A stretch of 64,000 nucleotides of DNA from a virus (Duplodnaviria > Heunggongvirae > Uroviricota > Caudoviricetes). The translations under genes and the position numbers were made by a program. The notes beneath the pieces are model-generated. The model had not been told where the DNA came from. It searched no databases and saw nothing but the letters and a program-made list of their open reading frames with translations. The stretch's first letter is position 1; the number at the start of each line of letters is the position of its first letter. The stretch spans positions 51,988 through 115,987 of IMG/VR virus record IMGVR_UViG_3300005323_000037. The stretch is one strand, 5' to 3'. Positions 2,840 to 19,197 of the stretch are shown in pieces.

Positions 2840-3028
2840 TCAATCATCTGATCTTGAGCCACTATTGTACTGACTCTTCTCGTACCGCTCATTTTCATAT
2901 AGTTGATAGATATTCCATGATATGAGCAAATCCCCTGCATCGCAATCATCAACTACATTCAGCGGTATATTGAACTCCTTACTAATTAGTACTCGCAACA
3001 ACTCTACTGGCATCGGAGCGCCCGTCAA
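2840..3028 (-). CDS. Tail assembly chaperone, T segment (probably made as a G-T fusion by -1 frameshift)
   Basis: Lies in the -1 frame relative to the upstream chaperone ORF and overlaps its end. Positioned between the major tail and TMP genes. TTG start. Confidence 0.4.
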   Translation of the reverse strand: MTGAPMPVELLRVLISKEFNIPLNVVDDCDAGDLLISWNIYQLYENERYEKSQYNSGSRSDD

Positions 3029-3051
3029 GACATGCTCGACGATTGCTCCCT

Positions 3052-3363
3052 CTAGGCGTTTGGGAGCTTGGCAATCCGATCCATGATTGAGCTAATAACA
3101 GTTGATGTCAGATCGAGCGGTAGCATGCTAGTCGCGCCTTCTTCTTTAGGCTGCGGAAGAGGATTGCCTTCCTCGTCTACAAAGTTCCATTCCACAACCA
3201 TAGTAGACAATGCTTCCGCCATACGATCAAAGTTACCGCTTGCCGCGTCAGCAAACATCCCTAATGTCGGATTGGTACGCGCGGTGAAATTCCAGCCTTC
3301 CCAATCGCCTTCTAGTTCAATCTTTGCCGTCTTGATCGGCATCTTCCTTTTAGTACTTGTCAT
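3052..3363 (-). CDS. Tail assembly chaperone (gpG-like)
   Basis: 103-aa acidic protein immediately upstream of the TMP in conserved order. Slippery-type heptamer CCCAAAC (rc of 3058-3064) lies one codon before its stop. Confidence 0.45.
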   Translation of the reverse strand: MTSTKRKMPIKTAKIELEGDWEGWNFTARTNPTLGMFADAASGNFDRMAEALSTMVVEWNFVDEEGNPLPQPKEEGATSMLPLDLTSTVISSIMDRIAKLPNA

Positions 3364-3390
3364 TAGATTGTCAATCTCCTCAGTATAATA

Positions 3391-3813
3391 TTATCCGAAT
3401 GTGGTCCGTGTTAGTGAGCCAGACCTGCCCACCATGGTCATTGAGATTTTAGCTGCATCCATCAACGTAAACGACATTTCATAGCTGCTCAATATCGTAC
3501 ACGCAGTATACATAACGCAGCCACTGCCTGAACCAGAAGGCCCAAGCGCAAAGCGCGTGCTGCCACCAAGAATGCCATACATTACTATATCAGTTTCATT
3601 CGCTCCGGTATCCATAAAGCCCGACATAGTAAGCTCGACATCCTTGATCGAATCAGCAACGCGCTGCTTGACTACATCACCGAAACCTGTAACCTCTGGC
3701 ACTTCGGCAGTGTAGCGCAATGTGATTTCGTTTGTTTTGCCGGAGATAGCGCGACAAGTGCCTGCACTATCATCGACACCTAACGATGCGTTCCTTGCTA
3801 CTAATTTAGCCAT
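3391..3813 (-). CDS. Major tail (tube) protein, short paralogue
   Basis: N-terminal 85 aa clearly paralogous to ORF 4132-4857 (MAKLVARN.../MAKIVARN..., shared LRxTAExPExT and SIKDVELT motifs). Position upstream of the chaperones. Confidence 0.55.
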   Translation of the reverse strand: MAKLVARNASLGVDDSAGTCRAISGKTNEITLRYTAEVPEVTGFGDVVKQRVADSIKDVELTMSGFMDTGANETDIVMYGILGGSTRFALGPSGSGSGCVMYTACTILSSYEMSFTLMDAAKISMTMVGRSGSLTRTTFG

Positions 3814-4131
3814 ATCTTATTACCTCAACCCTTTCTGGATGCCCACTGCCCGCCAGAACTATGGGCTACATACACTCGATCAACTACCTACTTGAGAAAA
3901 CTTATGGGTTAGAATAATTGCTATCTATAACGGATAAGTTTTCTGCTTACAAATAATAGCTGCTACATTTGCAATTTTCCATATAGCAGTATTTATTTGT
4001 CGATGTACTTGTCGCTAAACTCTACAAATAACCCTACTACATTTACTTTTTTCGATGTAATAGTATTTATTTGTAGTCGGGAAAACTATCCGTTATAGAG
4101 GCTTTATTTCTATACGGATAAGTTTCCTAAA
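3814..4131. repeat. Structured intergenic element: two ~60-bp tandem palindromic units flanked by inverted ACGGATAAGTTTYC half-sites
   Basis: Units at about 3951-4076 each contain CAAATAA...TTATTTG hairpins. Half-sites at 3926-3943 (forward), 4079-4097 (reverse) and 4111-4127 (forward). Confidence 0.5.
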
Positions 4132-4857
4132 TTAGCTCGCTGCTACCATAAATGTCGCGCATGGGCTGGTGCCAGCAAGCTGAATTGATACCCTGCGATA
4201 ACGCGATGCGCCAGTGATTGCACTCCATGATGCACTTGAGATTCCTACCGCGGCCACACTAGCCTTGTCTGTAATTACAAGCGCGGTGGTCCAAGTTGAA
4301 TCATCAGAACTGTTTTGAATACTAGCACTGAATTCTGGCGTCGTCCCAGTAAGCGTGTATAACCTAATGAATCCATACATCGAGCCAGCAGGACTAGCGC
4401 CATAATCAACTGATGCTAATGGGCTAGTGCCAGCACCGTTCATGGTTGTATATCCAAGCGAGCGCGTGTAATACAGATTACCAGTGCCAGCATATGTAGT
4501 GCTAAATGCCGCGGCTTCCGCTAACGGATAGCGCATTTCATAATTGGACAAGATGCCAACAAATTCCTTACCAACCTTAGATGCGCCATACCCTTCAGGA
4601 TATTGACCAACTATTCCCGATGCGCCAAGCATAGAATTGTACAGTTCATCGACTTGAGATGCCGCCACATCCTGAAAGCCATCAACTGTTAATTCCACAT
4701 CCTTGACACTATCAGCTAGCCTGCACTTGATCGAGTCTGTAAATGCGGTTGCCTCTGGCGCTTCAGCAGTTAGTCGCAAGGTAGTACTATTTGAACGCGT
4801 CGATAAATCTCTGCCACCTAGTGAGATACGCACATTACGTGCTACGATTTTCGCCAT
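4132..4857 (-). CDS. Major tail (tube) protein, long paralogue with ~100-aa Gly/Ser/Tyr/Thr-rich C-terminal extension
   Basis: Paralogue of 3391-3813. The extension resembles decorated or Ig-like long-form tail tube proteins. Confidence 0.55.
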   Translation of the reverse strand: MAKIVARNVRISLGGRDLSTRSNSTTLRLTAEAPEATAFTDSIKCRLADSVKDVELTVDGFQDVAASQVDELYNSMLGASGIVGQYPEGYGASKVGKEFVGILSNYEMRYPLAEAAAFSTTYAGTGNLYYTRSLGYTTMNGAGTSPLASVDYGASPAGSMYGFIRLYTLTGTTPEFSASIQNSSDDSTWTTALVITDKASVAAVGISSASWSAITGASRYRRVSIQLAGTSPCATFMVAAS

Positions 4858-5017
4858 TACTTACCTCCACATCAGACAACGCAATGAGACCAATGCTAAG
4901 AGCGGATTGAATGTGCTTCTTCGGCCAATCTACTAGCTCATCTAATGTGCCAGCATTGTAGATTGTATGTGTCCCATCTTTATTGTCGTGCCACACTGTT
5001 TGTACAAACTTGTACAT
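4835..5017 (-). CDS. Hypothetical small protein
   Basis: 60-aa ORF co-oriented and packed with its neighbours. Confidence 0.25.
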   Translation of the reverse strand: MYKFVQTVWHDNKDGTHTIYNAGTLDELVDWPKKHIQSALSIGLIALSDVEVSNGENRST

Positions 5018-5165
5018 ACTTTTCTCCTGCTAATTATTATACCATACTTAGACTAAAATGTCAATAGACGTTGCAATGACATTACATAATAAAACGCGTA
5101 TATTAGCACTCTCGTGTCCTATACGCGTTTGCTGAACTGATATTTCAGATGATTAATCTGATAGA

Positions 5166-5600
5166 TTAGATAACGTTCTCTACTTCAAGCGTATACATAA
5201 TTGGTATCCAAGTTGCTCCACCTGGGAATGTGATACCGGTTTGCGGATTGTGTTCAGCTTCCAATCTGATTACTTGATCGACAGTATTATTGATAGTTGG
5301 ATTAGCTTTGATTGCCGCGATTACCTTATCATTGATAGACCAGATAGTATTGAGCACAGTTTCTGGCACACCGGTATCTCGAACATATGTTTCAAGTCTA
5401 AAACGCCAATCATCAGATGGTTCGCCATCGCCAAATACAGTAAATGCGCCACTGTAGCCAGTGAATGAGACTTTCATTGCAACGTCATTGGAGGATTCCA
5501 TAATGGCATAGGAATTCTTCGATACATAGCTGCCGAATAATGTAGACGCGCTGAAGATGCTGACTAACTGATCTGCAATTGCCGAGCCGCTACTAGCCAT
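5166..5600 (-). CDS. Putative tail terminator / tail completion (neck) protein
   Basis: 144 aa, positioned immediately upstream of the major tail gene as in sipho-type modules. No diagnostic motif. Confidence 0.3.
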   Translation of the reverse strand: MASSGSAIADQLVSIFSASTLFGSYVSKNSYAIMESSNDVAMKVSFTGYSGAFTVFGDGEPSDDWRFRLETYVRDTGVPETVLNTIWSINDKVIAAIKANPTINNTVDQVIRLEAEHNPQTGITFPGGATWIPIMYTLEVENVI

Positions 5601-5605
5601 TATCG

Positions 5606-6214
5606 TTATCCTTTACTTATACTTACAAAGCGCCCGCCAGCGCCGCGCCATTTAGAACCACGCCCAGATGGAGCATATGTAAACTGTCCAGCTTTAGAAT
5701 AGAAGGCTGGATTCTCAAATGCGGCAACGTACTGTGCAGCCAATTGTCCTGCTGTACGCTCGGCTGCTACATATGCCTCATCTATAAATGGATTAGCTGC
5801 CGATCCTGGATGGCGCGCAGTGTATGGTTCGCCAACCCATTTGACAGGATGCTCTAGCCCAGGCCAGGATAATGCTCTAGCTGAGCCTTTACCAGTGATG
5901 GAACCTGGAAAGATCATATAGCCAGGCTTAGTCTGCCTAGTTACATAATCTAATTTCTCTGGCTGCGATGTCCATACTGAATATGTGCCCACTCCAGATT
6001 CAATGCTGAATGAATCCTTCAGATGCGAGTTACCATAACGCTTATCGCGCGCTTCGCCAACTGGACTATGAGTTACCGCATAATTGTAGAAACTCCTAGC
6101 TACCTCTAATGCTATAGCATTGAGTATTTTACCGCCAGTAGTGGGCAACGCTTTCATGATTGGATCAAACTTAGCCCTTAGATCGCTGATATCAGTTTCA
6201 AATGTTGGTCCCAT
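5606..6214 (-). CDS. Putative head-tail joining (neck) protein
   Basis: 202 aa, Gly/Pro/Ala-rich, positioned in the neck module. Confidence 0.3.
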   Translation of the reverse strand: MGPTFETDISDLRAKFDPIMKALPTTGGKILNAIALEVARSFYNYAVTHSPVGEARDKRYGNSHLKDSFSIESGVGTYSVWTSQPEKLDYVTRQTKPGYMIFPGSITGKGSARALSWPGLEHPVKWVGEPYTARHPGSAANPFIDEAYVAAERTAGQLAAQYVAAFENPAFYSKAGQFTYAPSGRGSKWRGAGGRFVSISKG

Positions 6215-7452
6215 TATCCCGCCTTTGGCAGCAATGACAATATCCAGTCGGATATCTTACGTGTAGCTGTGCCGCCATTTTGCACAAGATACTTATTGAT
6301 TAGACTATTGTAGCTTGGCGGCGGCTGTCTAAGAGATGTTCTGATGGCGGCCTCAAGTTCATCTGGATTAGCACCTAGTGCAATTACTTCGGGCACAAGT
6401 GGCGGATCGCCAATTTCGATCAAGCGCGCTGTACGTACACAAGCTGCTTCAAGCAACACATTACTATTGCCATAGCTGATCGCTACATCCGCACAGCTAA
6501 GCATGACATCTAAATGCCCTGGGCAGAATAGTATTGGCATACCAGTTGCCTTGGCTTGCTCGATGCGCTGCTTGATGAGTCCCTCATTGCGATCATTCGG
6601 ATGCGCTGAGAATATAAACTGGCATTCAGGTAGACGCTTAGTAGTCTCTAGAAATGCAGCAAACGCTTCTTCTAATCCATTATGACAGCCAAGGATATTG
6701 GTATCTTGTGACCAGCTTGGGAAATAAACCACAATTGGCTTACGCGTATCAAGGCTGAGCAGTTTGCATGAGCGCTCGCGATCTGGATGCACATTAGCTA
6801 AGCGATCATATTGTGGTAAGCCAGTAATGCGAATCTGTGCACCTAGCTTGAGCAGATCATAGCGCTCCTTATACCAGTTAGCTTGAAATGGCCCACCCGC
6901 AGCCACATGTGTCGCCATAGCAAAGTCGTGTATATCCGACATAACTGGACCACGGCCAGTATTAGGCAAATAGATTGCATGCGGAATATGTAGAACAGGA
7001 ATGCTATGTGCCCTACCCCACTGACAGATTGGCTTCATCACTGTATCGACATCATTGTGAACAATGATAAGCTCGGGCTTGATCTTATTCAAGGATACGA
7101 TAATTGCCGCGATGTTGGGCACGGAATTGTACATAAACATGTCCAGATTATCATTTAGCCATCTTGCTACTGCGATAGTTGCTCCCGAGTTTTTGGCCAC
7201 ATTATAGATATCATTACGCTGGCTAGCCTTGCTTATATTAGATACAATTGCAGCAGCCATGCGTGTGGCATCATTGCGAGCCGGTGCATCAATCAGGCTA
7301 GCAATGCACTCTGATTTCAAGTCTACATTCTTGATTACTTCACAGAAGTCCTGCGTTAGCGTCCAGAATACTACATCATTATGTAAAGCATCATTGACAA
7401 TCCGCATGATGGGCAAGAATCTCTGGTCAGGCGAGACGAAGATATTATGCAT
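6214..7452 (-). CDS. GT-B glycosyltransferase of the TagF/KpsS-like family (CDP-alditol phosphotransferase or capsule-type)
   Basis: Motifs VVYFPSWSQD (compare YAPTWR) and FIFSAHPND (compare K-x-HP) in a C-terminal Rossmann half. Start moved to MHNIF at 7452 with a GGAGA RBS. The track's 5' extension to 7530 is low-complexity. Confidence 0.5.
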   Translation of the reverse strand: MHNIFVSPDQRFLPIMRIVNDALHNDVVFWTLTQDFCEVIKNVDLKSECIASLIDAPARNDATRMAAAIVSNISKASQRNDIYNVAKNSGATIAVARWLNDNLDMFMYNSVPNIAAIIVSLNKIKPELIIVHNDVDTVMKPICQWGRAHSIPVLHIPHAIYLPNTGRGPVMSDIHDFAMATHVAAGGPFQANWYKERYDLLKLGAQIRITGLPQYDRLANVHPDRERSCKLLSLDTRKPIVVYFPSWSQDTNILGCHNGLEEAFAAFLETTKRLPECQFIFSAHPNDRNEGLIKQRIEQAKATGMPILFCPGHLDVMLSCADVAISYGNSNVLLEAACVRTARLIEIGDPPLVPEVIALGANPDELEAAIRTSLRQPPPSYNSLINKYLVQNGGTATRKISDWILSLLPKAG

Positions 7453-7657
7453 TGTTTGATTCTCCAGCCAAGCGCTCATTGAGGAAGGCATGATTGATAT
7501 GCTGAATGATATCGTAAGCCGCACACTCAATCAGATTGACGCCATCAATGATGGTAGCTTCACCGAATAAGCGCGGTAGCTTGTCCATGATTAGCATTAA
7601 GTGTATCTGATTAGTATCAGAGAATTCTTGCAGCATATTATCTTCACTCATGCTCAT
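7445..7657 (-). CDS. Hypothetical 70-aa protein between the two glycosyltransferase genes
   Basis: Short ORF with ATG start overlapping neighbours by a few nt. No motif. Confidence 0.25.
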   Translation of the reverse strand: MSMSEDNMLQEFSDTNQIHLMLIMDKLPRLFGEATIIDGVNLIECAAYDIIQHINHAFLNERLAGESNNA

Positions 7658-8858
7658 TCACCTCGACTGGCTTATCCGATTCAATCATCTCTGTAGACTT
7701 GCTCGCTTCAACAGTAGGCTTAGCATCCCAATTGATAAAGTACAGTCCAGGCAGCACGCCATGATCGGCACGAAAGTCATTGATGATCTGACTGTATACT
7801 GACTTTACATAATCTAACTGATTATCAATGAATAAGCTTTGAAAGTATGGTATACCACGCGTTGCTAGCTCATTCTCACTGACCAGATTATCCAAAGTGT
7901 CCATAATGGCTTTAGCCCAATTGTCGGTACCGTCACGGACTAGCTTGCCGAATTTAGAGAACTCTTCATACGGCTCACCGTAGGAGCCAATCCAAGGAAT
8001 ACCAGCCAGTCCATACTCCAACCCCTTGATCCATGACCTGCGCTGATCGTATGGGCCATAGAGAGGCGCTACACCAATATCAAACATGCTAACTACTTTA
8101 GGCCACTCGTTAGGCGATACACCGGGCTGCATGCGCTTCTGGTCAATTGGTACAGGTAGCTGCTCAAATATCCTTGGATCATTACCACAGATTACCCAGA
8201 TTACCTCTGGATGATTGCGACTGATAATTGTAGCAGCGTCACGTAGTCCTGATCCCCACCAGGAATCATAATGACTGACAGAGCCACCCCAGCCGATTAG
8301 AATGCGATCACTCAAGCCTAGCTCAGCCTTACGAGCAGTCCTGTCCGACATTTCTTGCCACCACTCGCGCCTAGCATAATTTGGCACATAGTACCCGTTT
8401 GTGATATACTTCCAATCAGCTAACAGTAACCGATTGGGAGAAATCAACCCATCGCTGACTGACAGTCCACGGCACAGCATCTGCAATGGCGGTGTAGGCA
8501 GCTTAGCCGAATTGCGATGCCAGAAGTTATGCGCTGGATTAGATGAGGGCAGCATCTGATAGGCGTCATCTAGGTCTACTACAGTTGGCTTACCTCTGCC
8601 TTGCCAATAGCGCACACCATCAACCATTTGATCGCTGAGCAGATTGCGCTGAAAGATTACTATATCGGCATCACTGATCCATTTCTGTACATCGGGCGAC
8701 ATGTAGTGCTCGAAACCGGATACATGAATGAGCTTAGCGTGCCAGTCAGCTTTCTTTTCAGCAGCAGCTTTATTCATCGCGTCGGCAAAGGCTAAGCAGC
8801 GCCATTCGGATGTATTCCATTCTAGTGCGCTATCAGCGTATACATAGACTACGTTCAA
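7644..8858 (-). CDS. GT-B glycosyltransferase (GT4/GT1-like)
   Basis: C-terminal DIGVAPLYGPYDQRRSWIKGLEYGLAGIPWIGS resembles the E-x7-E donor-binding motif region of GT4 enzymes. 404 aa. Confidence 0.45.
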   Translation of the reverse strand: MNVVYVYADSALEWNTSEWRCLAFADAMNKAAAEKKADWHAKLIHVSGFEHYMSPDVQKWISDADIVIFQRNLLSDQMVDGVRYWQGRGKPTVVDLDDAYQMLPSSNPAHNFWHRNSAKLPTPPLQMLCRGLSVSDGLISPNRLLLADWKYITNGYYVPNYARREWWQEMSDRTARKAELGLSDRILIGWGGSVSHYDSWWGSGLRDAATIISRNHPEVIWVICGNDPRIFEQLPVPIDQKRMQPGVSPNEWPKVVSMFDIGVAPLYGPYDQRRSWIKGLEYGLAGIPWIGSYGEPYEEFSKFGKLVRDGTDNWAKAIMDTLDNLVSENELATRGIPYFQSLFIDNQLDYVKSVYSQIINDFRADHGVLPGLYFINWDAKPTVEASKSTEMIESDKPVEVNEHE

Positions 8859-8934
8859 TATTGTTTCTCCTTATGATGATTATGTAATGCACCTGTATAA
8901 TTATATCACAAAGCAACACTAATTGCAATAGCTA

Positions 8935-9471
8935 TTACCAATCATCATAATCATCGTCGTCATCTGCATGCGCATTAGCTAGTGTGCCAGGAAAATCATG
9001 CATACCACGATAGAAGCGCGGCTTGACTCGATCGGTGTTAGATTCATAGGTGTCTTTATCAGAGATAGATATACCACCAGCATATGGCACCATAGTAGAT
9101 GAGCGCGTTACGCCCATAGCAGTGAGGTCCATTTGACCGAGACTATTGATGCCTTCATAGAACATGTCCATGAAGATTTTGCCGCGTAAGCGCTCGCCGG
9201 CGTTGATTACTATACCGACACGTGACATTTCTGCTCTGGCTGCCGCGTAGAGCGCATTCAGGTCTACTAGCTCATTGTAAATGCTGGCAGTGGAAGCTAC
9301 TGGAATAGTATAGCCACTGCCAGATAGATAAGCATTGATGCGACTATAGCCAGCAGCTAACCAATTTTCTACATGCGATGAGGCCGGAGAGGTAGTAGAA
9401 TCAAAGGTTGAAGCTGAGCCAAGTAGACTCTTGCAATAACCGACTACATTAGATGCTGATGCATAAGTCAT
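8935..9471 (-). CDS. Hypothetical virion-module protein with poly-acidic C-terminus (HADDDDDYDDW)
   Basis: 178-aa ORF in the morphogenesis arm. Confidence 0.3.
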   Translation of the reverse strand: MTYASASNVVGYCKSLLGSASTFDSTTSPASSHVENWLAAGYSRINAYLSGSGYTIPVASTASIYNELVDLNALYAAARAEMSRVGIVINAGERLRGKIFMDMFYEGINSLGQMDLTAMGVTRSSTMVPYAGGISISDKDTYESNTDRVKPRFYRGMHDFPGTLANAHADDDDDYDDW

Positions 9472-9478
9472 ATTTGTA

Positions 9479-10120
9479 TTATCCTCTGCATGTCCAGTTA
9501 TCTAGCTTGTCACCGGAGATGCTAGAAAACATGCCATGAATTGTGCCGTCCACAATAACTGTCGTGCCGCTACCTAATAGTATATCATTTTTGTATGCTT
9601 GCCAGGACGTGCCAGAAAGAACCAGCTTCAACACATCATTGGCAACGTATTCGGACACGTATTCAGCCAAGAGAGACGACCCTTCTGGTAAGGACTCTAA
9701 AATAACTACAGAACTGCCAGCTTGAAACATCTGAAATGAAATAGTAGGATTAGTAGCCGAGTCACATCTGGCATATATGCCAGCAGCCTCAGCTAACGCT
9801 CTAACAGTAACACTGATAGTAACATTGGATATACCGCACGATTGAAGCGCAAATACATTGATCTCGCCACTTTGCACTACACCGCTCGCAATCGACCAGC
9901 CAGATGCATTCCAAGCAATGGATTGGGCCGTCTCGCCGCTTGGACCAACTGATTCACTTGAACCAAGAACTCCATTGGCGCGTGTAAAGCTATCGTATGA
10001 TAAGAATGGTTGAGCAGTAGCATTGGAGCCGAATAAGCGCTTGCCTATAATAACTGGCTCAACTCTAATAACACCATTAGCTATTGGTTGCACAGTAATT
10101 GGATCAATAATAATAGTCAT
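9479..10120 (-). CDS. Hypothetical virion-module protein (Ser/Gly/Thr-rich, beta-rich; possible fibre or adhesin-like)
   Basis: 213-aa ORF, good coding texture. Confidence 0.3.
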   Translation of the reverse strand: MTIIIDPITVQPIANGVIRVEPVIIGKRLFGSNATAQPFLSYDSFTRANGVLGSSESVGPSGETAQSIAWNASGWSIASGVVQSGEINVFALQSCGISNVTISVTVRALAEAAGIYARCDSATNPTISFQMFQAGSSVVILESLPEGSSLLAEYVSEYVANDVLKLVLSGTSWQAYKNDILLGSGTTVIVDGTIHGMFSSISGDKLDNWTCRG

Positions 10121-10124
10121 GCTT

Positions 10125-10793
10125 TCACCCCGTCAGCGCGGCCATCGCGGCGGAAACGGCCGGCACCCATGTGGCGTGACCGGTAGATGTATCGTAAATC
10201 GCACCTGCTTGCCAGTAGCCCACCATTAGCCCCTCTGCCGCACCAACGCCATATCCGCCAATGATAAATTCTCGGTTTGGCGTAATCCCCGCGTCGGTCA
10301 GCGTTGCGATCAGCGCGCCATCCATATACGCGCTTCTGCCAGCCAGCGCCTGTACGCCCGCGGCGACAGCTGTGCCATTTTTCAGAATCGTACTGCCGCG
10401 CCACCACATACGCTTACCTCCATTCCCCTCATTTATTACAAAAGCGGCTGTTACTGCTGCGTTTGTAGATCCGAAAATATAGCGATTATCGCCGGAAACG
10501 GCGGCAAAGCGCACGATGATGGTATAGTCAAGATTCGCGGGAATTGCGCCTGTCCGGAGGCGTTTTGACGATCCGTCAAAGATCCATCCCGTCGCGCTGG
10601 AAAAACCTGGTGTTACACCCTCAAACGCATCCTGGATTTCCGCGAAATCGTGCAGGCTCGCGGCGTAGTTTGCCGCGCCGAGCGGGCAGTACGCGCGAAT
10701 CGGTGCCGGTGCGCCGCCCGCGCGGTACCAAGCACTATTAGCATCGCGTCTCCGTATTATTCCACTCATGCCACCGCGCAATAATCCGGTCAT
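10125..10793 (-). CDS. Hypothetical Gly/Ala-rich protein on a GC-rich island
   Basis: About 60% GC against about 40% in flanking genes. 222 aa. Confidence 0.35.
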   Translation of the reverse strand: MTGLLRGGMSGIIRRRDANSAWYRAGGAPAPIRAYCPLGAANYAASLHDFAEIQDAFEGVTPGFSSATGWIFDGSSKRLRTGAIPANLDYTIIVRFAAVSGDNRYIFGSTNAAVTAAFVINEGNGGKRMWWRGSTILKNGTAVAAGVQALAGRSAYMDGALIATLTDAGITPNREFIIGGYGVGAAEGLMVGYWQAGAIYDTSTGHATWVPAVSAAMAALTG

Positions 10794-10794
10794 C

Positions 10795-11448
10795 TTACCA
10801 TCTCACATTATGTAATGCGGTTTGCACGTCGCTTGGATTGACTGGAGCTAAACCAACCTGTTCCGCTCGACTACATAGCTTGACAGTATTACTATAACTA
10901 GGATCATCTTCCTTTTCAGCTAGAATAGCTTGGATTTTTCTAATAGTATTATCAGAGAGTATACTTGCCGCTACTTGCAATACAGACACCAGCGCGTCAC
11001 GATTGTCCATACTAATGGCTGTTTCAATATCGGTCTTGAGTCCAGGAATACGATAAATATCCAATGCCTCAGTAGGCTCCATGACGTCCAGTAAATCATA
11101 TATAGATACATGTTTAGGAATGGACGTAATACTATCTGGATTAATTGTCTCGGCCCGATAGTTGAGCAGGCTCGCAATTGACTCGTAGTCACGACCGTAC
11201 TGGCGGTAGTCTAGATTAGCTGGATCGTTCAATAATTCACTAAGTAATGCGCTCTGATCGCGTACCAGAATACGAGTCTCACCAGTATCAATTGGACTGA
11301 AGATGCGATCTACTTTCCCCAGCTTAGCCTTCTCTGCTACAGTTTTAGTAAACTTATGCTTCTTGCCTAATCGTAGAATGGTCAATACGCCTATTACAAT
11401 TGCTACAGTAGACATGAACAATGATATACCAAGCAAAATGTCATTCAT
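10795..11448 (-). CDS. Type II (N-terminal signal-anchor) membrane protein
   Basis: Start moved to MNDILLGISLFMSTVAIVIGVLTIL (TM helix followed by RLGKKHK). The track ORF extends to 11598 but overlaps the upstream gene. Confidence 0.35.
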   Translation of the reverse strand: MNDILLGISLFMSTVAIVIGVLTILRLGKKHKFTKTVAEKAKLGKVDRIFSPIDTGETRILVRDQSALLSELLNDPANLDYRQYGRDYESIASLLNYRAETINPDSITSIPKHVSIYDLLDVMEPTEALDIYRIPGLKTDIETAISMDNRDALVSVLQVAASILSDNTIRKIQAILAEKEDDPSYSNTVKLCSRAEQVGLAPVNPSDVQTALHNVRW

Positions 11449-11449
11449 A

Positions 11450-11782
11450 TTATGACTCCACAAAGTAGCCAATTGTATAGCCAAATGGCGAACCCGTACT
11501 GATATCCAGTACCAATGCATCGTTCGGATCAAGGCGAATCTCGCGTCCCTCAGTAAAAGCAAGCGCCACTCCATCGCCCTGATCCTTGCATAATACATTC
11601 AATTTCGTACTGGAGCTACCAGATTTTAGCAGCGCCAACTGCGATGCGGCAACATAATTCTGTAACACAACAGTTGATAAGCATATCTGCGCGCCCACTC
11701 CAGGACTGGTGGCTATAGTATTAGCACCACTAGCTATAACACTACCACTGATAACTGTGACTGCTTTGACTAAACGTCCCAT
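11450..11782 (-). CDS. Hypothetical protein
   Basis: 110-aa ORF in the packed array. Confidence 0.3.
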   Translation of the reverse strand: MGRLVKAVTVISGSVIASGANTIATSPGVGAQICLSTVVLQNYVAASQLALLKSGSSSTKLNVLCKDQGDGVALAFTEGREIRLDPNDALVLDISTGSPFGYTIGYFVES

Positions 11783-11783
11783 A

Positions 11784-12125
11784 TTACACCGGCCTTAGAT
11801 ACCAGCATGTTCGTAGTGCGCTGGCATCATCGTCACCATTGATATATGTAACTTTAGCAGCGTTGCCAACTACCTCAATCGAGAAGCCTGAACCTGAATC
11901 AGCAGTAACAACGGACGCGGATATATAATCCCAGTTGACACCATAATCAGCAGATTGATAGATGCTCAATCCAGACGCGGCTTTAGATGAGGCGCTACTA
12001 AATACAATGCCTACAATGCTGCGACAGCCCATTGATATCAGGCTACCAGATACACTACCATCAGCAGCTAACGATCCTGAACTACGCAAAATTTCTATAG
12101 CTGCTTGACCATACAATCTAGACAT
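11784..12125 (-). CDS. Hypothetical protein
   Basis: 113-aa ORF in the packed array. Confidence 0.3.
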   Translation of the reverse strand: MSRLYGQAAIEILRSSGSLAADGSVSGSLISMGCRSIVGIVFSSASSKAASGLSIYQSADYGVNWDYISASVVTADSGSGFSIEVVGNAAKVTYINGDDDASALRTCWYLRPV

Positions 12126-12189
12126 AATTCACTCCCGGCCACGATTGGTTACGTGCGCCACGCAATTAAGGTATGTGAATAGTTTCACA

Positions 12190-12972
12190 TTAGGTATGCA
12201 ATTCAATTACATCCATGATAACAGTTGGTGAGCGCTCTACTGCCAGATAGAATGCATCATTCGGATCAGAGCCGTCGCCGATTGCTGTCCAGAATATTCT
12301 GATAAACAATGCAATTGCCTCTTCCGGTACCGCTCCTCTAACTGTGATAACATACGGTACACTACCGATCAAGGCTGCCGCAAAAGATGTATCGCGCCCA
12401 ATTAGCACCAGCACATCAACATCAGTTAGGATTCCATCTAGATCAGTTGGTGTATACTCGCCATCTTTGAAGATTAGCCTATTGCCACTCACTTCAAGTA
12501 GCAGATACACATAACGAATTGGTATGCCAGTTGCTCTACGCGTATCAAGCAAACTCTTCATGCGTTTGAATTGCACTGGTCGCATAAATGTTGGTGCAAA
12601 GCAGCCCTTCTCACGAATCGCTCGCATGGCCGCGATACTGGCATCGGATTCCTTACTATTGATACCAACTAGAATAGTAGAGTTTTTATCAGTAGCAGCA
12701 ATCTGGCTACTCTCCAATACATTGATGCGTTCACGCGCTACTGTAAGCTGTGTTTCGAGTTCTTGAATGCGCTTTCTGGCTAAATCCAGTTCGGTTACTA
12801 ATGTATTAACAGTCTTACGCAAGTCTTCGACCTGTTTCGACAATTGCTCCTCCTTAGTTTCTGGCAGCAATGAGCGTTTCGCATTAGCTCGAATGCCTAA
12901 TAGGAGCGATACTAATGCCACTCCAAACGAGATGATGATCTGCCAATTTTCGCCAATGATTTTGATGTCCAT
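12190..12972 (-). CDS. Membrane-anchored coiled-coil protein with C-terminal alpha/beta domain
   Basis: N-terminal TM helix (IIISFGVALVSLLLGI), then a heptad-rich stretch of about 60 aa (KQVEDLRKTVNTLVTELDLARKRIQELETQL), then a globular domain. Start moved to MDIKII. Confidence 0.35.
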   Translation of the reverse strand: MDIKIIGENWQIIISFGVALVSLLLGIRANAKRSLLPETKEEQLSKQVEDLRKTVNTLVTELDLARKRIQELETQLTVARERINVLESSQIAATDKNSTILVGINSKESDASIAAMRAIREKGCFAPTFMRPVQFKRMKSLLDTRRATGIPIRYVYLLLEVSGNRLIFKDGEYTPTDLDGILTDVDVLVLIGRDTSFAAALIGSVPYVITVRGAVPEEAIALFIRIFWTAIGDGSDPNDAFYLAVERSPTVIMDVIELHT

Positions 12973-13337
12973 TAGCAATGCCTCTCGTTTTGAGCAGCTT
13001 CTAATATGCAAAATACGGACAGTATCAACGCTGACCATGAAGATGATAGTATCGGCATTACAGCTAGAGCGGCAAGCATATTAGTAGACGCACAGATTGC
13101 AGCGGATATTCTACCAAACCAACCACCACGCCAACCGTTGAATGCCGATACTAAAAATAATAGCCCTGAGACAACTTGCAACAAGCCAAATACAATCGGA
13201 TTAGTATAGTGCACAGTTAACGTGTTTAGTCCAGCTATACGCAGAATACCTTGCCCGATCATCATTAGACTAATTACATAACGCGCGCCGCCACTGATAG
13301 GCGGCATTTTTATACGTGCCAAGAATTCAGTCAGCAT
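12972..13337 (-). CDS. Small polytopic membrane protein (3-4 TM; holin-like topology)
   Basis: 121 aa with three to four hydrophobic helices. Confidence 0.35.
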   Translation of the reverse strand: MLTEFLARIKMPPISGGARYVISLMMIGQGILRIAGLNTLTVHYTNPIVFGLLQVVSGLLFLVSAFNGWRGGWFGRISAAICASTNMLAALAVMPILSSSWSALILSVFCILEAAQNERHC

Positions 13338-13358
13338 AGCACACTCTCCCTATTGGGA

Positions 13359-13724
13359 TTATAGAACGTATGCTACGTAATGAAATCCTACTGTACTAGC
13401 GCCGCCATTTGCATCGCCACAGTTGAACAGGTTAATTGAAGCGCCATTTGTGCCAACACGGATATTGTTGATTACAAATCCGTTCGGTAACGAGGCATTC
13501 AATACGCATGCACCAATTGCAAATACCTTAGATGTGGCCGACACACCTGTAATAGCAATTGAAGCCGAGCCCATAGTAGACGCATTGATTGCGCCCATAC
13601 AAGCTGCTACTGACCCAGCCAAAATAGCCGAGATACTTGTGCCATTGACATCAACAGTGTTGCTAGCACCAACAGTAAGCCCACCAGCCGCGAGTAGAGT
13701 TCTTCGAGTCTTGAAACTAGGCAT
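13359..13724 (-). CDS. Hypothetical Ser/Ala/Gly/Asn-rich protein
   Basis: 121-aa ORF directly downstream of the capsid gene terminator region. Confidence 0.3.
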   Translation of the reverse strand: MPSFKTRRTLLAAGGLTVGASNTVDVNGTSISAILAGSVAACMGAINASTMGSASIAITGVSATSKVFAIGACVLNASLPNGFVINNIRVGTNGASINLFNCGDANGGASTVGFHYVAYVL

Positions 13725-13919
13725 TTTACTATCTCCTTATAGATAGAATACAAATACTCCTGGATAATACACTTAAGTTTATTACGCACAGGAGTATTCA
13801 AGGGTATTCAATTGTATTCTTTTTCTGTGGGAGCGCCACAGCATCTCCTGTGCGGAGGACATGCAAACTCATTCTTGCGAATAAGTCCCAACCTGCTAGC
13901 ATGCTAAGCAATAATGGCT

Positions 13920-13968
13920 GTGTGGACTGGGCATTCTGCTATCAATAAGTAAATCAACCAGTCCACAC
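13920..13968 (-). terminator. Strong stem-loop (11-bp perfect stem GTGTGGACTGG/CCAGTCCACAC) immediately downstream of the capsid gene
   Basis: Inverted repeat 13920-13930 / 13958-13968 followed on the minus strand by a U-rich tract. More hairpins at 13749-13800 and 13828-13860. Confidence 0.4.
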
Positions 13969-13978
13969 AAGCCCTAGG

Positions 13979-14899
13979 TTACACACAGTTGTACAGAACA
14001 GCACCAGCATCAGAGGCGGCAATGACTTCATCGGTAGAGTGCGATGCTTCAAATACATCCTGGTAACGCTGATCTTCACGGAAACGAGCGATCTTGCGCG
14101 TCTTCCATTCAAGGACATAGCCAGCCGCGGGCGTGCGCAGTGACGGCGAAGGCGGAACATAACCACACCAGAACTGATCGCCCCAGATGTAGGCAGGAGA
14201 TGCAGTCTGGCCTTCCATGGCCTTATCCCATAACTGCGTGCCAATGAGGACCTTGCTAAAGCCAAACCAGTCAACTAGATCGCTCGGATCGACGCGCCCG
14301 CCCGGTCGAGTGTACTTCACCCGATCCAGGAAGTCAGGATGCTGACGCAGATGCCGCCATACATCCCAGGACATAATTGCTACATTAGGCGTGCGACCAA
14401 TTGAGCTGACCACACCATTGACCGCAGTGTCGATATCGCCCCATGGATCAGAAAGATCAGAACTCCAAGCAGTATTAGGCGTAGCAGAATACGACCATAG
14501 TCCAGACCCGCCTGTGGTGAGATTGGCGACTCGAATTTCCTGTGCCCGCAAGAGTGCGTCAGTAACGAATTCGGCAGCCTCAACATCGGGCCGTAGCGGA
14601 GCATCTGCGTTTTCGCGCACTTCATCCGGTACAACCTTAGCTACTGCGTAGGTCATGCAGTTATAGGTCCCAGTCGTTAGGTCGTACTCTGCGCGTTCAG
14701 CAATTGCTCCCGGCGCACGCTGAGCAACCACATTACGCTGCCAAGCCTGCTTCGGGAACGTGAAGTAGTAATCCGACTTTTTCATTACCGGAATAGTAGA
14801 GAATACCTGTGTATTCATGTATTCAGGATTACTATATCCGATACTGATCGAAGTCATTACCGCATCGACATGAACATCATGTAAAGTAGGAAGTGGCAT
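13979..14899 (-). CDS. Major capsid protein (putative)
   Basis: 306-aa ORF with a strong RBS (AAGGAG), downstream of the scaffold and decoration-like genes and followed by the terminator hairpin. Size and order fit an MCP. Confidence 0.5.
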   Translation of the reverse strand: MPLPTLHDVHVDAVMTSISIGYSNPEYMNTQVFSTIPVMKKSDYYFTFPKQAWQRNVVAQRAPGAIAERAEYDLTTGTYNCMTYAVAKVVPDEVRENADAPLRPDVEAAEFVTDALLRAQEIRVANLTTGGSGLWSYSATPNTAWSSDLSDPWGDIDTAVNGVVSSIGRTPNVAIMSWDVWRHLRQHPDFLDRVKYTRPGGRVDPSDLVDWFGFSKVLIGTQLWDKAMEGQTASPAYIWGDQFWCGYVPPSPSLRTPAAGYVLEWKTRKIARFREDQRYQDVFEASHSTDEVIAASDAGAVLYNCV

Positions 14900-14916
14900 A
14901 TCTTATTCTCCTTTCC

Positions 14917-15321
14917 TTATACTACCGCACGCTGCGGTATGGTGAGGAAGATTGTGCCATAAGCGCCTGAGCCAGACGCGTAAGCCACTTCCGATTGCCC
15001 CATACACCAGGCACAGCCGGCAGTCGTATTGATATAACCAGTAGCCAAACCAGTGCTAGAGCTAATTACCAAGCCGCCAAACGTCAGCGGGCTAGCGTTG
15101 GATGCCTCAGCAGTTAGGCGTACCTTGGTCTGCCCAAAGCGCCGTACAGTAGCTTCTTCACCAGCGGTAGGATCGTTCTGCAAGACACCCAAGCATGACC
15201 CGCCCATCGTAGCATTTAGCTCGACATTACCCGCGGTGCTAGAAGCCTTTACGAACCGATACTGATAGCTGCTCAAGTCCGAGTCAGCAATATAAGTGTA
15301 ATCCCAACCCTTGCTAGCCAT
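14917..15321 (-). CDS. Putative head decoration / capsid accessory protein
   Basis: 134 aa, Gly/Ser/Thr/Ala-rich, between the scaffold and capsid genes. Confidence 0.3.
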   Translation of the reverse strand: MASKGWDYTYIADSDLSSYQYRFVKASSTAGNVELNATMGGSCLGVLQNDPTAGEEATVRRFGQTKVRLTAEASNASPLTFGGLVISSSTGLATGYINTTAGCAWCMGQSEVAYASGSGAYGTIFLTIPQRAVV

Positions 15322-15323
15322 GA

Positions 15324-16250
15324 TTACACCTCCCTTCCAGGCTTACGCGCGCTGCGCAGATAAGCCATTGCATCGTCCCGACCAACCTTTAGCAACTCGT
15401 CGCGCGGATTAGCCGACCGAGTAGCCTTAGTCACCGCGTCAGTTGCTTCAGCAGCATAGTTGACGCCCTTCTCTAGCCAAAGCTGATTGTCTACAAGGTG
15501 ATTATCCATCGTCTGCATGACGGCAGCAAACCACTCGTAGCGCGTCGGATCAGTCTTGGACAGCCAGTACATATGATCGGCTAACTCGTCCGGGCTAAGC
15601 GGTAAGGCAGAAAGACTACGTGCCTTGGAAATGAATTCAGAGCGTTCCTTCTCTTCCTTGGCGATAACCAGTGCCTGCTCGGCCTTTTCCAAACGAGATA
15701 CCAAGTCATTGTACTTCTCCACATCGACCTGATTCTCTTCACTCATATTGTTCTCCTTACTTAATTCGTTCTCTTCAACTGCTACTTCAGCTATTGCAGC
15801 CTGCTCAGTTGTTTCCACTACATCAGATTCAGTTACCGGTTCAGATGTCTCTTCTTTTACCTCTTCCTCCTTAGCAGATTCAATGATTTCAGCTTCACTA
15901 GCTACAGTATTATCAACAGTTTCAGTAGACTCTTCTACGACGCTGGCGGGCGACTTTTCTTGTAGAAGAATTTCCTTAGCTGTATTGACAATCAACTCGA
16001 TAAAGCGCTTACCTAAATCGGAAAGCTTTTTGGAGTCCTGCCCCATTTCCGACTTATCCGCTTCTTGCATTTCGTCGCATTCTTTCTTCTTGTCTTCGTC
16101 TTCGATGCCATCCTCATTATCAGTGCTAGCTTCGGCACTCTTGACCATGAAGAAGTCTTCACGATTGGCTCCTGCAAAGACTAGACCAAGTGTTTCGACA
16201 TCAACATCAGATAGCTCAAACTTCTGCTTTTCCTCATTAGGCATTGTCAC
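15324..16250 (-). CDS. Scaffolding protein (putative)
   Basis: 308 aa, extremely acidic (E/D/S-rich), predicted helical or coiled, immediately upstream of the capsid genes. Confidence 0.45.
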   Translation of the reverse strand: MTMPNEEKQKFELSDVDVETLGLVFAGANREDFFMVKSAEASTDNEDGIEDEDKKKECDEMQEADKSEMGQDSKKLSDLGKRFIELIVNTAKEILLQEKSPASVVEESTETVDNTVASEAEIIESAKEEEVKEETSEPVTESDVVETTEQAAIAEVAVEENELSKENNMSEENQVDVEKYNDLVSRLEKAEQALVIAKEEKERSEFISKARSLSALPLSPDELADHMYWLSKTDPTRYEWFAAVMQTMDNHLVDNQLWLEKGVNYAAEATDAVTKATRSANPRDELLKVGRDDAMAYLRSARKPGREV

Positions 16251-16554
16251 TATCCTTTCTGGTAATCAGCTTACGCGTATGAGCGGCACTGGAACCAGCA
16301 AAAGCTGACATGCCAGCTACTAGCGCGGGCCAGATTACCTGTTCAAAGTTTGCTGAGTAATGCCCAGTAACTATGCCAAGCAATACACCGAATAGAGGGA
16401 TAGCTAGACAGATCAAGAATGTGTATAGACGCTTGAGCTTAGCATCTAGATTGCCCCAATTAGGAATCCACTCAATCGCAAAGCTCTCAATAAAGCCGAT
16501 CACTACATTTATGCCTGGTGCCTGCAACCAACTTAGAAACATCTCAAAACTCAT
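16237..16554 (-). CDS. Small membrane protein
   Basis: 105 aa with 2-3 hydrophobic helices. RBS AGGAG. Preceded by the promoter and terminator pair. Confidence 0.3.
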   Translation of the reverse strand: MSFEMFLSWLQAPGINVVIGFIESFAIEWIPNWGNLDAKLKRLYTFLICLAIPLFGVLLGIVTGHYSANFEQVIWPALVAGMSAFAGSSAAHTRKLITRKDSDNA

Positions 16555-16568
16555 AGGCTTTTCTCCTG

Positions 16569-16605
16569 AAATAAAAATGCGGATCGAGACCGGAGTCCCA
16601 TCCGC
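16569..16605 (-). terminator. Intrinsic terminator-like hairpin (GCGGAT...ATCCGC plus U-run) between a strong promoter and the head-gene block
   Basis: Stem 16579-16584 / 16600-16605. On the minus strand it is followed by AUUUUUAUUU, then the RBS of ORF 16237-16554. Confidence 0.5.
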
Positions 16606-16627
16606 AAATCCTTACCAGTACGTGAAT

Positions 16628-16656
16628 ATTATAACATATATTATAATATTTGTCAA
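16628..16656 (-). promoter_or_regulatory. Consensus sigma70-type promoter (TTGACA-17-TATAAT) on the minus strand
   Basis: The reverse complement reads TTGACAAATATTATAATATATGTTATAAT. A second GTACTTGACAA copy at 16670-16682 lacks a -10. Confidence 0.55.
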
Positions 16657-16698
16657 GTACTTAGTTGAAATATTGTCAAGTACTTGTGATGCATCACA

Positions 16699-17502: not shown

Positions 17503-17669
17503 TATAATATTGCCTCCAAAACTATAATCATAACTTGCTGCACCATAGTAATATTATAGCACAGTTTTATGAAAAAAGCAAGAGGCATATCATTATGTAA
17601 TGTACTAGAGAGGGGTGATAGAAGAAATAAAAAGAGGCCAACCATTGCTGATTGACCTCAAGAGGAAGA

Positions 17670-17858
17670 CTAGACTTGTACGTCTACACTTTTATCATAG
17701 ACGTCGATCCGAATGCGTGACAAGTCGGATGATAGACGATAAACTGTAATAGAGATATCTCTAAATTCAGTCTGGTATTCAGCGCGCCTAGCGCCATATT
17801 CAATTGTGGTGATACCTAGTCTGATTAAGTCAATGATCTCATTCAGGTTATCGTCCAT
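17670..17858 (-). CDS. Hypothetical small protein
   Basis: 62-aa ORF. Confidence 0.25.
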   Translation of the reverse strand: MDDNLNEIIDLIRLGITTIEYGARRAEYQTEFRDISITVYRLSSDLSRIRIDVYDKSVDVQV

Positions 17859-19195: not shown

Positions 19196-19197
19196 TG

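Follow-up and report, generated by a model that had tools for sequence, protein, structure and literature searches.

Two GT-B enzymes conserved in the head-to-tail region of uncultured siphoviruses as candidates for virion glycosylation

Introduction

To our knowledge, glycosylation of phage virions has been demonstrated so far only in mycobacteriophages, and Freeman et al. reportedly thought in their abstract that it is rare elsewhere. Systems are described in cluster O (Corndog) and cluster F1 (Che8) (Freeman et al. 2023, Cell Host Microbe, as cited in passages of PMC11600133 and PMC11256854). In Corndog, glycosyltransferase genes (gp35-38) lie in the structural operon between the genes for portal and protease (PMC4351075). 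Their products reportedly modify subunits of the capsid and the tail tube (PMC11600133, citing Freeman et al. 2023), and the enzymes themselves were reportedly not detected in Corndog virions.

Here, we describe glycosyltransferase-like genes that, as in Corndog, are encoded by a siphovirus inside its structural operon. They were found in a 64,000-nucleotide stretch of an IMG/VR virus record, which we call the window. Unlike the Corndog and Che8 systems, this cassette is a candidate predicted from its genes, and it forms a core set of genes in a broad lineage of uncultured phages. It also differs from them in its enzyme set, a GT-B pair with one TagF/KpsC-like member and a small partner protein. 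Its slot is between adaptor-like and tail-completion genes, in contrast to the portal-protease slot of Corndog. A tblastn search of 50,697 GenBank phage records gave no match to the TagF/KpsC-like enzyme (GT1). The other enzyme (GT2) had one metagenomic match at 21% identity and none in actinobacteriophages, so neither has a detectable sequence relationship to the Corndog and Che8 enzymes. No isolate of this phage lineage was found among the GenBank phages.

Organization of the cassette

The cassette genes, their neighbors and the capsid and tail-tube genes discussed below all lie on the minus strand. An earlier note assigned two glycosyltransferases to positions 5166-8858. Two GT-B genes are indeed present, but the interval is too wide, since 5166-6214 holds two other ORFs of 144 and 202 aa. 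GT2 (7644-8858, 404 aa) starts with TTG, 8 nt after an AAGGAG Shine-Dalgarno sequence. It is followed by a small ORF of 68 aa (7445-7651) and by GT1 (6214-7452, 412 aa). The true start of GT1 is the ATG at 7452 rather than the TTG at 7530, because public gene calls yield a 412-aa product that is 100% identical. The small ORF overlaps the GT2 stop by 8 nt and the GT1 start by another 8 nt. The GT1 stop overlaps the start of the 202-aa gene at 6214 (TAATG), and judging from this junction, translation of the GT genes is coupled to that of the neck/tail gene downstream. A scan of 3000-17800 for terminator-like elements found none within 5166-9471. The 76-nt gap before GT2 contains a putative sigma-70-like promoter (8900-8928, minus strand), a consensus match only (TTGCAA-17-TATAAT with an extended -10 TG, 10 of 12 positions).

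In 14 of 48 loci, GT2 and GT1 have between them a homologous small ORF carrying the motif Y-x-L-I-Q-x-x-N-x-x-(F/Y)-L. GT2 carries it as a C-terminal fusion in two relatives (P0097 and P0121). The 68-aa protein is therefore a candidate docking module of GT2, and the fusion offers a direct handle for biochemistry.

Directly upstream of GT2 is the gene of a 178-aa head-tail adaptor-like protein (8935-9471), which keeps this place in about 42 loci with 28-51% identity. The protein matches phrog_1732 (unknown function), and its family profile weakly matches 'Head to Tail protein gp72' (11bp_M; E 0.037). Apart from this weak match, the 'neck' identity of the direct GT neighbors is positional. By position, the 202-aa product (5606-6214) would be a neck or tail-completion protein and the 144-aa product (5166-5600) a tail terminator or completion protein. 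The former has no Pfam, PHROG or PDB match, and L006, L008 and several IMG/VR loci have homologues of it in the corresponding place. The latter has no Pfam or PDB match and is kept downstream of GT1 in many loci (27-41%). The context is marked by the major capsid protein (13979-14899; phrog_1005, 5e-71) and by a tape-measure ORF (PF10145) that extends past the window start.

Clearly non-structural genes also occur in the capsid-to-neck segment of the lineage, among them homing endonuclease genes, a gene for a GH25 lysozyme in L005 and genes whose products were read by eye as membrane proteins. By itself, position is thus weaker evidence than it appears.

Conservation across the lineage

Of 49 IMG/VR loci, 42 keep the gene order adaptor-like, GT2, GT1, tail tube, and three more stop short of where GT1 could appear. 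Six other contigs have the same order: the metagenome relatives L004-L007, L008 and the MAG contig L021. The earlier placement of the pair in the neck/tail morphogenesis module, not in an accessory island, is thus borne out across the lineage. In every relative the homologues sit in the late structural operon and not in the lysogenic-conversion cassettes that the note had raised as the contrary case. Among the 110 window ORFs at 16-64 kb, neither an integrase nor any other lysogeny gene was found.

Loci with the GT2-GT1 order range in GC from 39.5 to 67.8%, and capsid identity falls to about 38%. Identity to relatives is 47-55% for GT2, 58-61% for the capsid protein, 44-56% for the tail tube and 40-48% for the adaptor-like protein. 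GT2 is therefore conserved nearly as well as the capsid protein. The cassette differs from the known mycobacteriophage case in that unrelated enzymes are fixed between neck and tail genes with about capsid-level conservation over this GC range. Homing endonucleases adjoin GT2 in L006 and L007, as is typical of conserved core genes. Methyltransferase genes stand beside the cassette in L053 and L073, which parallels the O-methyltransferase and glycosyltransferase cluster of Corndog (PMC4351075).

The two GT-B enzymes

AlphaFold2 models of both proteins (pLDDT 89 each) have the GT-B fold, with the two Rossmann-like beta/alpha/beta domains and inter-domain cleft that define this superfamily, and glycosyltransferases are among the structural neighbors of both. 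The best PDB matches of the GT2 model in Foldseek are MshA, glycogen synthase, PimA, BshA and GtfC, and phrog_7162 'glycosyltransferase' matches GT2 at 3.7e-10. GtfC/Gtf3 are protein O-glycosyltransferases of serine-rich-repeat adhesins. GT2 shares the GT-B architecture and the L-E-x-x-x-x-G-x-P donor-site helix with these and with the GT4 enzymes MshA, PimA and BshA, at 11-15% identity. The earlier description of GT2 as GT4-like holds for the fold and the structural matches. However, the window protein has no Pfam match at E<=0.1, and it lacks a complete E-x7-E motif of the GT4 type. Of the two Glu residues, the second alone is kept (E281, invariant), and the nearly invariant R273 occupies the position of the first, eight residues ahead, in a register that we set by our own reading on G-L-E-Y-G-L-A-G-I-P. 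The GT2 family has 37 invariant columns, including IGWGGSxSH and RSWxKGLEY. Its C-domain begins with a G-W-G-G-S-x-S-H loop, which resembles the G-G-S loop of MurG/GT1-type enzymes. The acceptor-side N-domain is about as conserved (0.61) as the donor-side C-domain (0.67), which argues for an acceptor common to phages of very different hosts.

GT1 defines an uncharacterised GT-B family of about 900 cluster representatives (E<1e-10) between the TagF, KpsC and UDP-GlcNAc 2-epimerase families. The YAPTWR-like and K-x-HP-like motifs of the earlier TagF/KpsS-like assignment are present (FPSWSQDTN and SAHPN in the window protein; SSWRQDTN and K-x-HPR in the family consensus), and HMMER aligns them with YAPTWR and RGH of Cps3D, a TagF-like polymerase. 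W247 and H284-P285, opposite T-W-R and R-G-H of Cps3D, are invariant or nearly so. Most relatives have the Arg of W-R, whereas the window protein and P0002 have Ser there (Ser248 in the former). GT1 has the GT-B fold in common with TagF/TarL and the capsule polymerases Cps3D and Bcs3 (PF04464), and its G-x-P-x-x-D, (S/P)-(S/T)-W-R and (K/R)-x-H motifs align with theirs. The family profiles match Cps3D (9e-4 and 2e-10) and TagF (0.036 and 2e-8). Sequence alignments to TagF and TarL begin past the catalytic His (TagF H444, TarL H300), for which the invariant H132, H155, H158 and H175 are candidates in GT1.

Unlike TagF/TarL, GT1 is a single domain pair of 412 aa without membrane-targeting or extra domains, and it is encoded by a phage without CDP-polyol synthesis genes instead of in a wall-polymer locus. 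It also differs from these enzymes and Cps3D in missing the PF04464 threshold: 16 of 21 close relatives (best 2e-11) and 24 of 48 distant ones (best 9e-16) match this family (gathering score 22.1 bits), whereas the window protein has no match to it at E<=0.1. In the HMM classification suggested in the earlier note, PF13692 is matched by 20 of 36 GT2 family members (best E 6.5e-8), and the window GT2 has no match to it at E<=0.1.

In Anaerolineae, cellular homologues of GT2 belong to a conserved triad that includes a TPR protein, and TPR domains are fused to distant relatives of GT1. These associations hint at protein substrates.

A possible role in virion glycosylation

We consider virion glycosylation the best reading, with a probability of about one half; it rests on synteny and on the Corndog/Che8 precedent. 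We infer catalytic activity, a protein acceptor, an order of action and a donor chemistry as follows. GT2, the 68-aa protein and GT1 would form a late-expressed three-gene enzyme cassette that belongs to the core of the head-to-tail region throughout a large uncultured siphovirus lineage. The enzymes would be soluble and cytoplasmic and co-produced with the structural proteins. They may use nucleotide-activated donors of the host to build a short glycan on at least one virion protein, before or during assembly. GT2 would attach the first sugar, using a phage acceptor that is conserved, and the small protein, a detachable C-terminal module of GT2, may dock it to the acceptor or to GT1. GT1, with its H-P motif, would then lengthen the glycan, and the unit added may be a phosphodiester-linked polyol or a CMP-activated acid sugar.

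Several points count against this reading. The window GT2 lacks a Pfam match and a complete E-x7-E; GT1 stays under the cut-offs of both PF04464 and PF02350 and has Ser for the Arg of W-R; and no donor-synthesis genes are nearby (110 ORFs, 16-64 kb). In addition, TagF-type enzymes normally act on lipid-linked polymers, not on proteins.

The donor supply proposed in the earlier note, in which a TarJ-like MDR dehydrogenase (18206-19195) provides an alditol-phosphate precursor, does not hold. The protein is a generic Zn-dependent enzyme of the polyol/threonine-dehydrogenase type. Every NCBIfam score is far under its cut-off, and in the PDB the protein best matches alcohol dehydrogenase, RspB and threonine dehydrogenase. 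No homologue was found in the 49 IMG/VR loci, the metagenome relatives L004-L007 or the MAG contig L021. The 110 ORFs of 16-64 kb include no cytidylyltransferase or other nucleotide-sugar gene, so a TarI/TarJ-type precursor route is not encoded here. CDP-glycerol or CDP-ribitol, for which these ORFs provide neither TagD nor TarI and TarJ, could come from the host.

In its most specific form, the proposal is a lineage-wide glycan on a conserved virion protein, containing a teichoic-acid-like polyol-phosphate or a CMP-derived acidic sugar, made by a GT4-like primer, a small docking module and a TagF/KpsC-like extender. We regard this version as doubtful. If it is true, glycan-phosphate decoration would be one of the core steps in particle assembly rather than an accessory trait. 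More generally, if particles are modified by these products, a large group of environmental phages would have glycan decoration as a core feature of ancient origin. We speculate that such a coat could affect adsorption, particle stability and sticking to surfaces or mucus.

Alternative roles

The pair may instead modify the host envelope late in infection. Its substrates would be undecaprenyl-linked wall-polymer, LPS or capsule intermediates, or it may mask receptors, which would keep progeny from being trapped on debris or would block superinfection. The nearest families of GT1 (TagF/TarL, the TagF-like capsule polymerases and KpsC) all use lipid-linked cell-surface polymers, both folds are explicable without a phage acceptor, and universal lipid carriers would also account for an acceptor domain conserved across hosts. 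The fixed position between adaptor-like and tail genes, with coupling to the next gene of the structural region, speaks for a different role. So does the capsid-level conservation at such different GC contents, whereas host surface polymers differ widely. Known serotype-converting enzymes of phages are located in lysogeny modules, and no integrase is found here (110 ORFs). Neither enzyme has an N-terminal hydrophobic segment by eye, and the AlphaFold2 models have no separate terminal helix. We therefore think an envelope role unlikely.

A UDP-GlcNAc 2-epimerase/NeuC-type GT1 would convert a nucleotide sugar and feed it to GT2, leaving one encoded transfer step. PF02350 is in fact the sole Pfam match of the window protein, and GT1 shares an H-x-D motif with the epimerases (H-N-D134 and H-G-D, Asp kept). 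The match, at 26.6-26.9 bits, is below the gathering score of 30.6 bits, however, and TIGR00236 (wecB) reaches 13.8 bits against a cut-off of 210. PF02350 is also matched by fewer close relatives (10 of 21) than PF04464. In the HMMER alignment to WecB, continued without gaps, the epimerase H-V-E-A-G motif, whose Glu we take to be catalytic, faces H155-I-P157-H158-A with an invariant Pro157 in place of the Glu. GT1 thus lacks this Glu and carries the TagF-type signature, W-x-Q and H-P, its W-R-Q and K-x-H-P motifs aligning with TagF-like polymerases. These features make a sugar-converting GT1 quite improbable.

Glycosylation of phage DNA at hydroxymethylated bases as a defense against restriction is highly unlikely: the T4 alpha- and beta-glucosyltransferases are likewise GT-B enzymes, and the glycosylation of phage DNA takes diverse forms (Pyle et al. 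2024, as cited in a passage of PMC12619734), but the 110 ORFs of 16-64 kb include no thymidylate-synthase-like hydroxymethylase or base-modification gene, the cassette is in the late structural operon of every relative, and no T4-type DNA glucosyltransferase is among the top structural matches of GT1 or GT2.

Tail-tube proteins as candidate acceptors

If virion proteins are glycosylated, the tail tube is one candidate acceptor. The earlier note favored the Ser/Thr/Tyr-rich extension of a 241-aa tail-tube paralogue (4132-4857; phrog_9522, 1.6e-23). The extension is real: Ser, Thr and Tyr make up 35% of residues 126-241, compared with 18% in the structural proteins overall. However, we rejected the paralogue as a general acceptor, since a separate orthologue is found in only about a dozen related loci and most relatives that retain the GT pair lack it. 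Nearly all loci encode, downstream of the GT pair, the conserved tail-tube protein of 140 aa (3391-3813; phrog_10528 'major tail protein'). We consider it a candidate because its C-terminal R-S-G-S-L-T-R tail is conserved throughout the lineage as R-(S/T)-G-S-(L/M)-T-R, and more distant members have x-S-G-S-x-T.

Genomic context of the two GT-B enzyme genes

The window belongs to an uncultured tailed phage. A megablast search with positions 3000-20000 against 50,697 GenBank phage records gave no match, and identity to the nearest cultured-phage capsid proteins does not exceed 32%. A late morphogenesis operon occupies the minus strand of 1-17.5 kb. In the direction of transcription, the first recognised gene encodes an XkdF-type protease (16699-17502; PF14550), followed by an acidic scaffold-like ORF, a 134-aa ORF (14917-15321) and the major capsid gene (13979-14899; phrog_1005, 5e-71). 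Further downstream on the same strand are two tail-tube genes, a long paralogue (4132-4857; phrog_9522) and a 140-aa protein (3391-3813; phrog_10528), a 103-aa ORF in the chaperone position and a tape-measure ORF (PF10145) that extends past the window start. The two genes for GT-B enzymes, GT2 and GT1, lie between an adaptor-like gene, p178 (8935-9471), and the genes for a 202-aa protein (5606-6214) and p144 (5166-5600), all on the minus strand. A Pfam search of 59 family members of the neck-position neighbours found nothing. In a PDB profile search, p144 had no match and p178 had only a weak head-to-tail match. Apart from this one weak match, the direct neighbours are neck genes by position only.

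Upstream of the protease, the minus strand of 17600-38500 carries small unknown ORFs, an MDR dehydrogenase, an SPFH/Band_7 protein and a lipoprotein-like ORF (31539-32450; phrog_200). Neither a portal nor a terminase was recognised in the window, and because none was seen upstream of the protease, the head module appears to be split. The minus-strand ORF at 23715-24944 was ruled out as the portal, since it is a TnpB-like transposase (phrog_506, 1e-91). OrfB_IS605 and Cas12f1-like TNB domains were matched by two of the 110 ORFs scanned in 16-64 kb.

Perfect 12/12 matches to the sigma-70 consensus (TTGACA-17-TATAAT), each carrying an extended -10 TG, occur on the minus strand at 16628-16656, upstream of the scaffold/capsid block, and at 5036-5064, upstream of the tail-tube genes. 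These matches suggest that the host is a bacterium with canonical sigma-70 recognition and that the late operon is split into at least three transcription units.

The enzymes and their small partner

GT2 (404 aa; 7644-8858, minus strand) starts at a TTG codon 8 nt after an AAGGAG Shine-Dalgarno sequence. The window sequence has no Pfam match, and it matches phrog_7162 ("glycosyltransferase") at 3.7e-10. Metagenomes yielded over 200 homologues with identities of about 50%, and PF13692 is weakly matched by 20 of 36 taken from these. Among GenBank phages, the single match is metagenomic and 21% identical. An AlphaFold model built from 36 sequences reached a pLDDT of 89. Its best Foldseek matches in the PDB are GT4-type GT-B enzymes, namely MshA, glycogen synthase, PimA, BshA, HepE and two glycosyltransferases of adhesins, GtfC and Gtf3. 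Of the GT4 E-x7-E motif, only the second Glu is present, as the invariant E281; R273 occupies the first position. The N-terminal, acceptor-side domain is nearly as conserved as the donor-side domain (mean major-residue frequency, 0.61 vs 0.67).

Homologues of GT2 at 35-40% identity are also present in about two dozen genomes of Anaerolineae, among them those of the isolates Thermanaerothrix daxensis and T. solaris. Here the gene forms a conserved triad with a TPR protein and an FGE-sulfatase-like protein (L009-L032; e.g., L024, 8328-11913), and phage genes are absent nearby. TPR partners are typical of protein-directed transferases. The TPR partner of the cellular homologues hints, and no more than hints, at protein-directed activity. 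In Thermanaerothrix, the triad adjoins CheA and an M23 peptidase.

GT1 (412 aa; 6214-7452, minus strand) starts at the ATG at 7452, as in public gene calls of 100% identity. No match was obtained by tblastn against GenBank phages. An exhaustive search of cluster representatives gave 2,957 matches at E<=1e-3, 893 at <=1e-10 and 138 at <=1e-30; a word-indexed second homologue search with the GT1 alignment brought little gain (11 matches). GT1 alone scores 26.9 bits for Epimerase_2, under the cut-off of 30.6. Among 21 family members, PF04464 (TagF) is matched by 16 (best 2e-11) and PF02350 by 10. Among 48 distant representatives, 24 match PF04464, 21 match PF02350 and 7 match PF05159 (KpsC/KpsS); TPR, GT2-family or methyltransferase domains occur as fusions in some of the 48. 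The family profiles match the TagF-like capsule polymerase Cps3D (2e-10), 2-epimerases (7e-9), TagF (2e-8), TarL (4e-8) and KpsC (3e-4).

The GT1 motifs G-L-P-Q-x-D, S-S-W-R-Q-D-T and K-x-H-P align to G-Y-P-R-x-D, Y-A-P-T-W-R and R-G-H of Cps3D, with Ser replacing the Arg of W-R in the window protein. When the alignment register is extended without gaps, the epimerase H-V-E-A-G corresponds to H-I-P-H-A, with an invariant Pro at the Glu position. These features lean towards the TagF side. Invariant or nearly invariant residues of GT1 include H155, H158, D173, H175, W247, Q249 and H284. Given the TagF-leaning motifs, the absent epimerase Glu and the Arg-to-Ser change, we place GT1 among GT-B enzymes, in an uncharacterised family that lies between TagF, KpsC and the epimerases, without counting it as a proven member of any of them. 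The label "TagF/KpsS-like" in the earlier note is a fair description.

Between GT2 and GT1 lies a 68-aa ORF (7445-7651, minus strand) with an 8-nt overlap at either end, of its start with the GT2 stop and of its stop with the GT1 start. In 14 of 48 related loci, this slot holds a small ORF with the motif Y-x-L-I-Q-x-x-N-x-x-(F/Y)-L. The distant loci inspected also have small ORFs here, for which homology to the 68-aa ORF was not demonstrable. In two family members, P0097 and P0121, GT2 carries the module as a C-terminal fusion. These fusions are good evidence that the 68-aa module functions together with GT2. Downstream, the GT1 stop and the start of the 202-aa protein gene overlap in TAATG. 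A sigma-70-like match with an extended -10 is present in the 76-nt gap upstream of GT2, and a scan for terminator-like sites found none within 5166-9471.

Conservation of the cassette

Four metagenome relatives (L004-L007) share the order adaptor-like gene, GT2, small ORF (joined to GT2 in L005), GT1, genes of about 200 and 143 aa, tube, chaperone and tape measure. The same order is found in L021, a high-GC contig from a Steroidobacteraceae MAG bin with a capsid identity of 39%; the GC content of the loci ranges from 39.5 to 67.8%. An IMG/VR scan with the GT2 profile yielded 49 loci, and a GT1 homologue in the same orientation lies downstream in 42 of them. Three others end too early to tell, and four lack both GT1 and any phage marker. 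Identity to L004-L007, the four closest distinct relatives, is 58-61% for the capsid, 47-55% for GT2, 44-56% for the tube, 40-48% for the adaptor-like protein and 30-37% for GT1. The earlier placement of the GT pair in the structural operon rather than in an accessory island is borne out by the gene order. Conserved order and identity indicate that the pair belongs to the core gene set of the lineage and is not a moron.

Some loci carry additional genes. LAGLIDADG plus HNH-repeat homing endonuclease genes lie directly upstream of GT2 on the opposite strand in L006 (9030-9908, minus) and L007 (8773-9648, minus). In the distant relatives L064, L067 and L072, extra genes beside the cassette mostly have no Pfam match; one has an integrase SAM-like N-terminal domain. 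A 7.8-kb contig, L008 (JBAYMG010000041.1), encodes GT2, the small ORF, GT1 and p178 at 97-99% protein identity to the window phage, and its other proteins are 44-100% identical. It is assigned to a "Candidatus Omnitrophota" MAG, which is either a binning artefact or a host clue.

Possible functions

We estimate a probability of about 0.5 that the cassette is a late-expressed, cytoplasmic, three-component system that glycosylates virion proteins. This reading is based on the fixed position of the cassette and its coupling to structural-region genes, conservation near the capsid level across very different hosts, the conserved acceptor domain of GT2 and an experimental precedent in mycobacteriophages. 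Mycobacteriophage enzymes are reported to modify the capsid as well as the tail tube, in passages of PMC11600133 and PMC11256854 that cite Freeman et al. 2023. Class-I SAM methyltransferases (Methyltransf_23, Methyltransf_24) near the GT pair in the neck/tail block of two distant relatives, L053 (14447-15241) and L073 (8315-9028), echo the arrangement in mycobacteriophage Corndog, where an O-methyltransferase accompanies glycosyltransferase genes between portal and protease (PMC4351075). Glycosyltransferases that decorate particles from within a structural operon are already known; the novelty lies in the enzyme families, the small partner protein, the position on the neck side and the conservation throughout the lineage. 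The literature search returned nothing relevant on TagF-like enzymes in phage tails or on newer reports of phage virion glycosylation.

Action of the cassette on host envelope intermediates is an unlikely alternative, and the fixed position and the near-capsid conservation speak against it. The argument from position is limited by non-structural genes that the lineage also carries in the capsid-to-neck interval, including ORFs that look by eye like membrane proteins, a GH25 lysozyme (L005) and homing endonucleases. It is somewhat more doubtful still that GT1 is a sugar-nucleotide epimerase or hydrolase and not a transferase; the family matches 2-epimerases and PF02350, the epimerase Glu is replaced, and in that case GT2 could still glycosylate virion proteins. 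DNA glycosylation is very improbable; Pfam scans of the 110 ORFs of 16-64 kb detected no thymidylate-synthase-like hydroxymethylase. Cytidylyltransferases, nucleotide-sugar enzymes and integrases were likewise absent from these scans.

The donor supply proposed in the earlier note, a TarJ-like gene (18206-19195) that could provide an alditol-phosphate precursor, is rejected. The product is a generic Zn-dependent MDR enzyme, homologues are absent from all related loci, and the scanned ORFs include no cytidylyltransferase. With NCBIfam models the product reaches 115 bits at best, where the cut-off is 376, and in the PDB it is closest to an alcohol dehydrogenase, RspB and threonine dehydrogenases. 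The gene is not part of the structural operon; it sits upstream of the protease, surrounded by small unknown ORFs.

The Ser/Thr/Tyr-rich extension of the long tube paralogue, previously suggested as the acceptor, is real (35% in the C-terminal half vs 18% background), but it cannot be a general acceptor because only about a dozen loci have a separate orthologue. The 140-aa tube protein is present throughout the lineage. Its C-terminal tail, R-(S/T)-G-S-(L/M)-T-R-x-T-(F/W), is conserved among orthologues in L004-L082, with a core of S-G-S-x-T in distant members. We infer that the R-(S/T)-G-S-(L/M)-T-R tail is a candidate acceptor.

Other genes of the window

Membrane-like ORFs were noted by eye at 16237-16554, 12972-13337, 12190-12972 and 10795-11448, all on the minus strand. 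Their hydrophobic segments are N-terminal or multi-pass, and one of the ORFs contains a coiled coil. The GH25 muramidase of L005 lies in the same capsid-to-neck interval, and the structural operon may contain lysis genes. Four tRNA genes are found on the minus strand in 31412-36374: Leu-TAA, Ile-TAT, Tyr-GTA and a tRNA-??? at 33509-33583 with an abnormal anticodon loop. On the plus strand, 57848-60321 encodes an RNA ligase (phrog_548) and, directly after it, a 521-aa radical-SAM/Fe-S oxidoreductase (phrog_16999); the two may act as a pair in RNA repair or modification.
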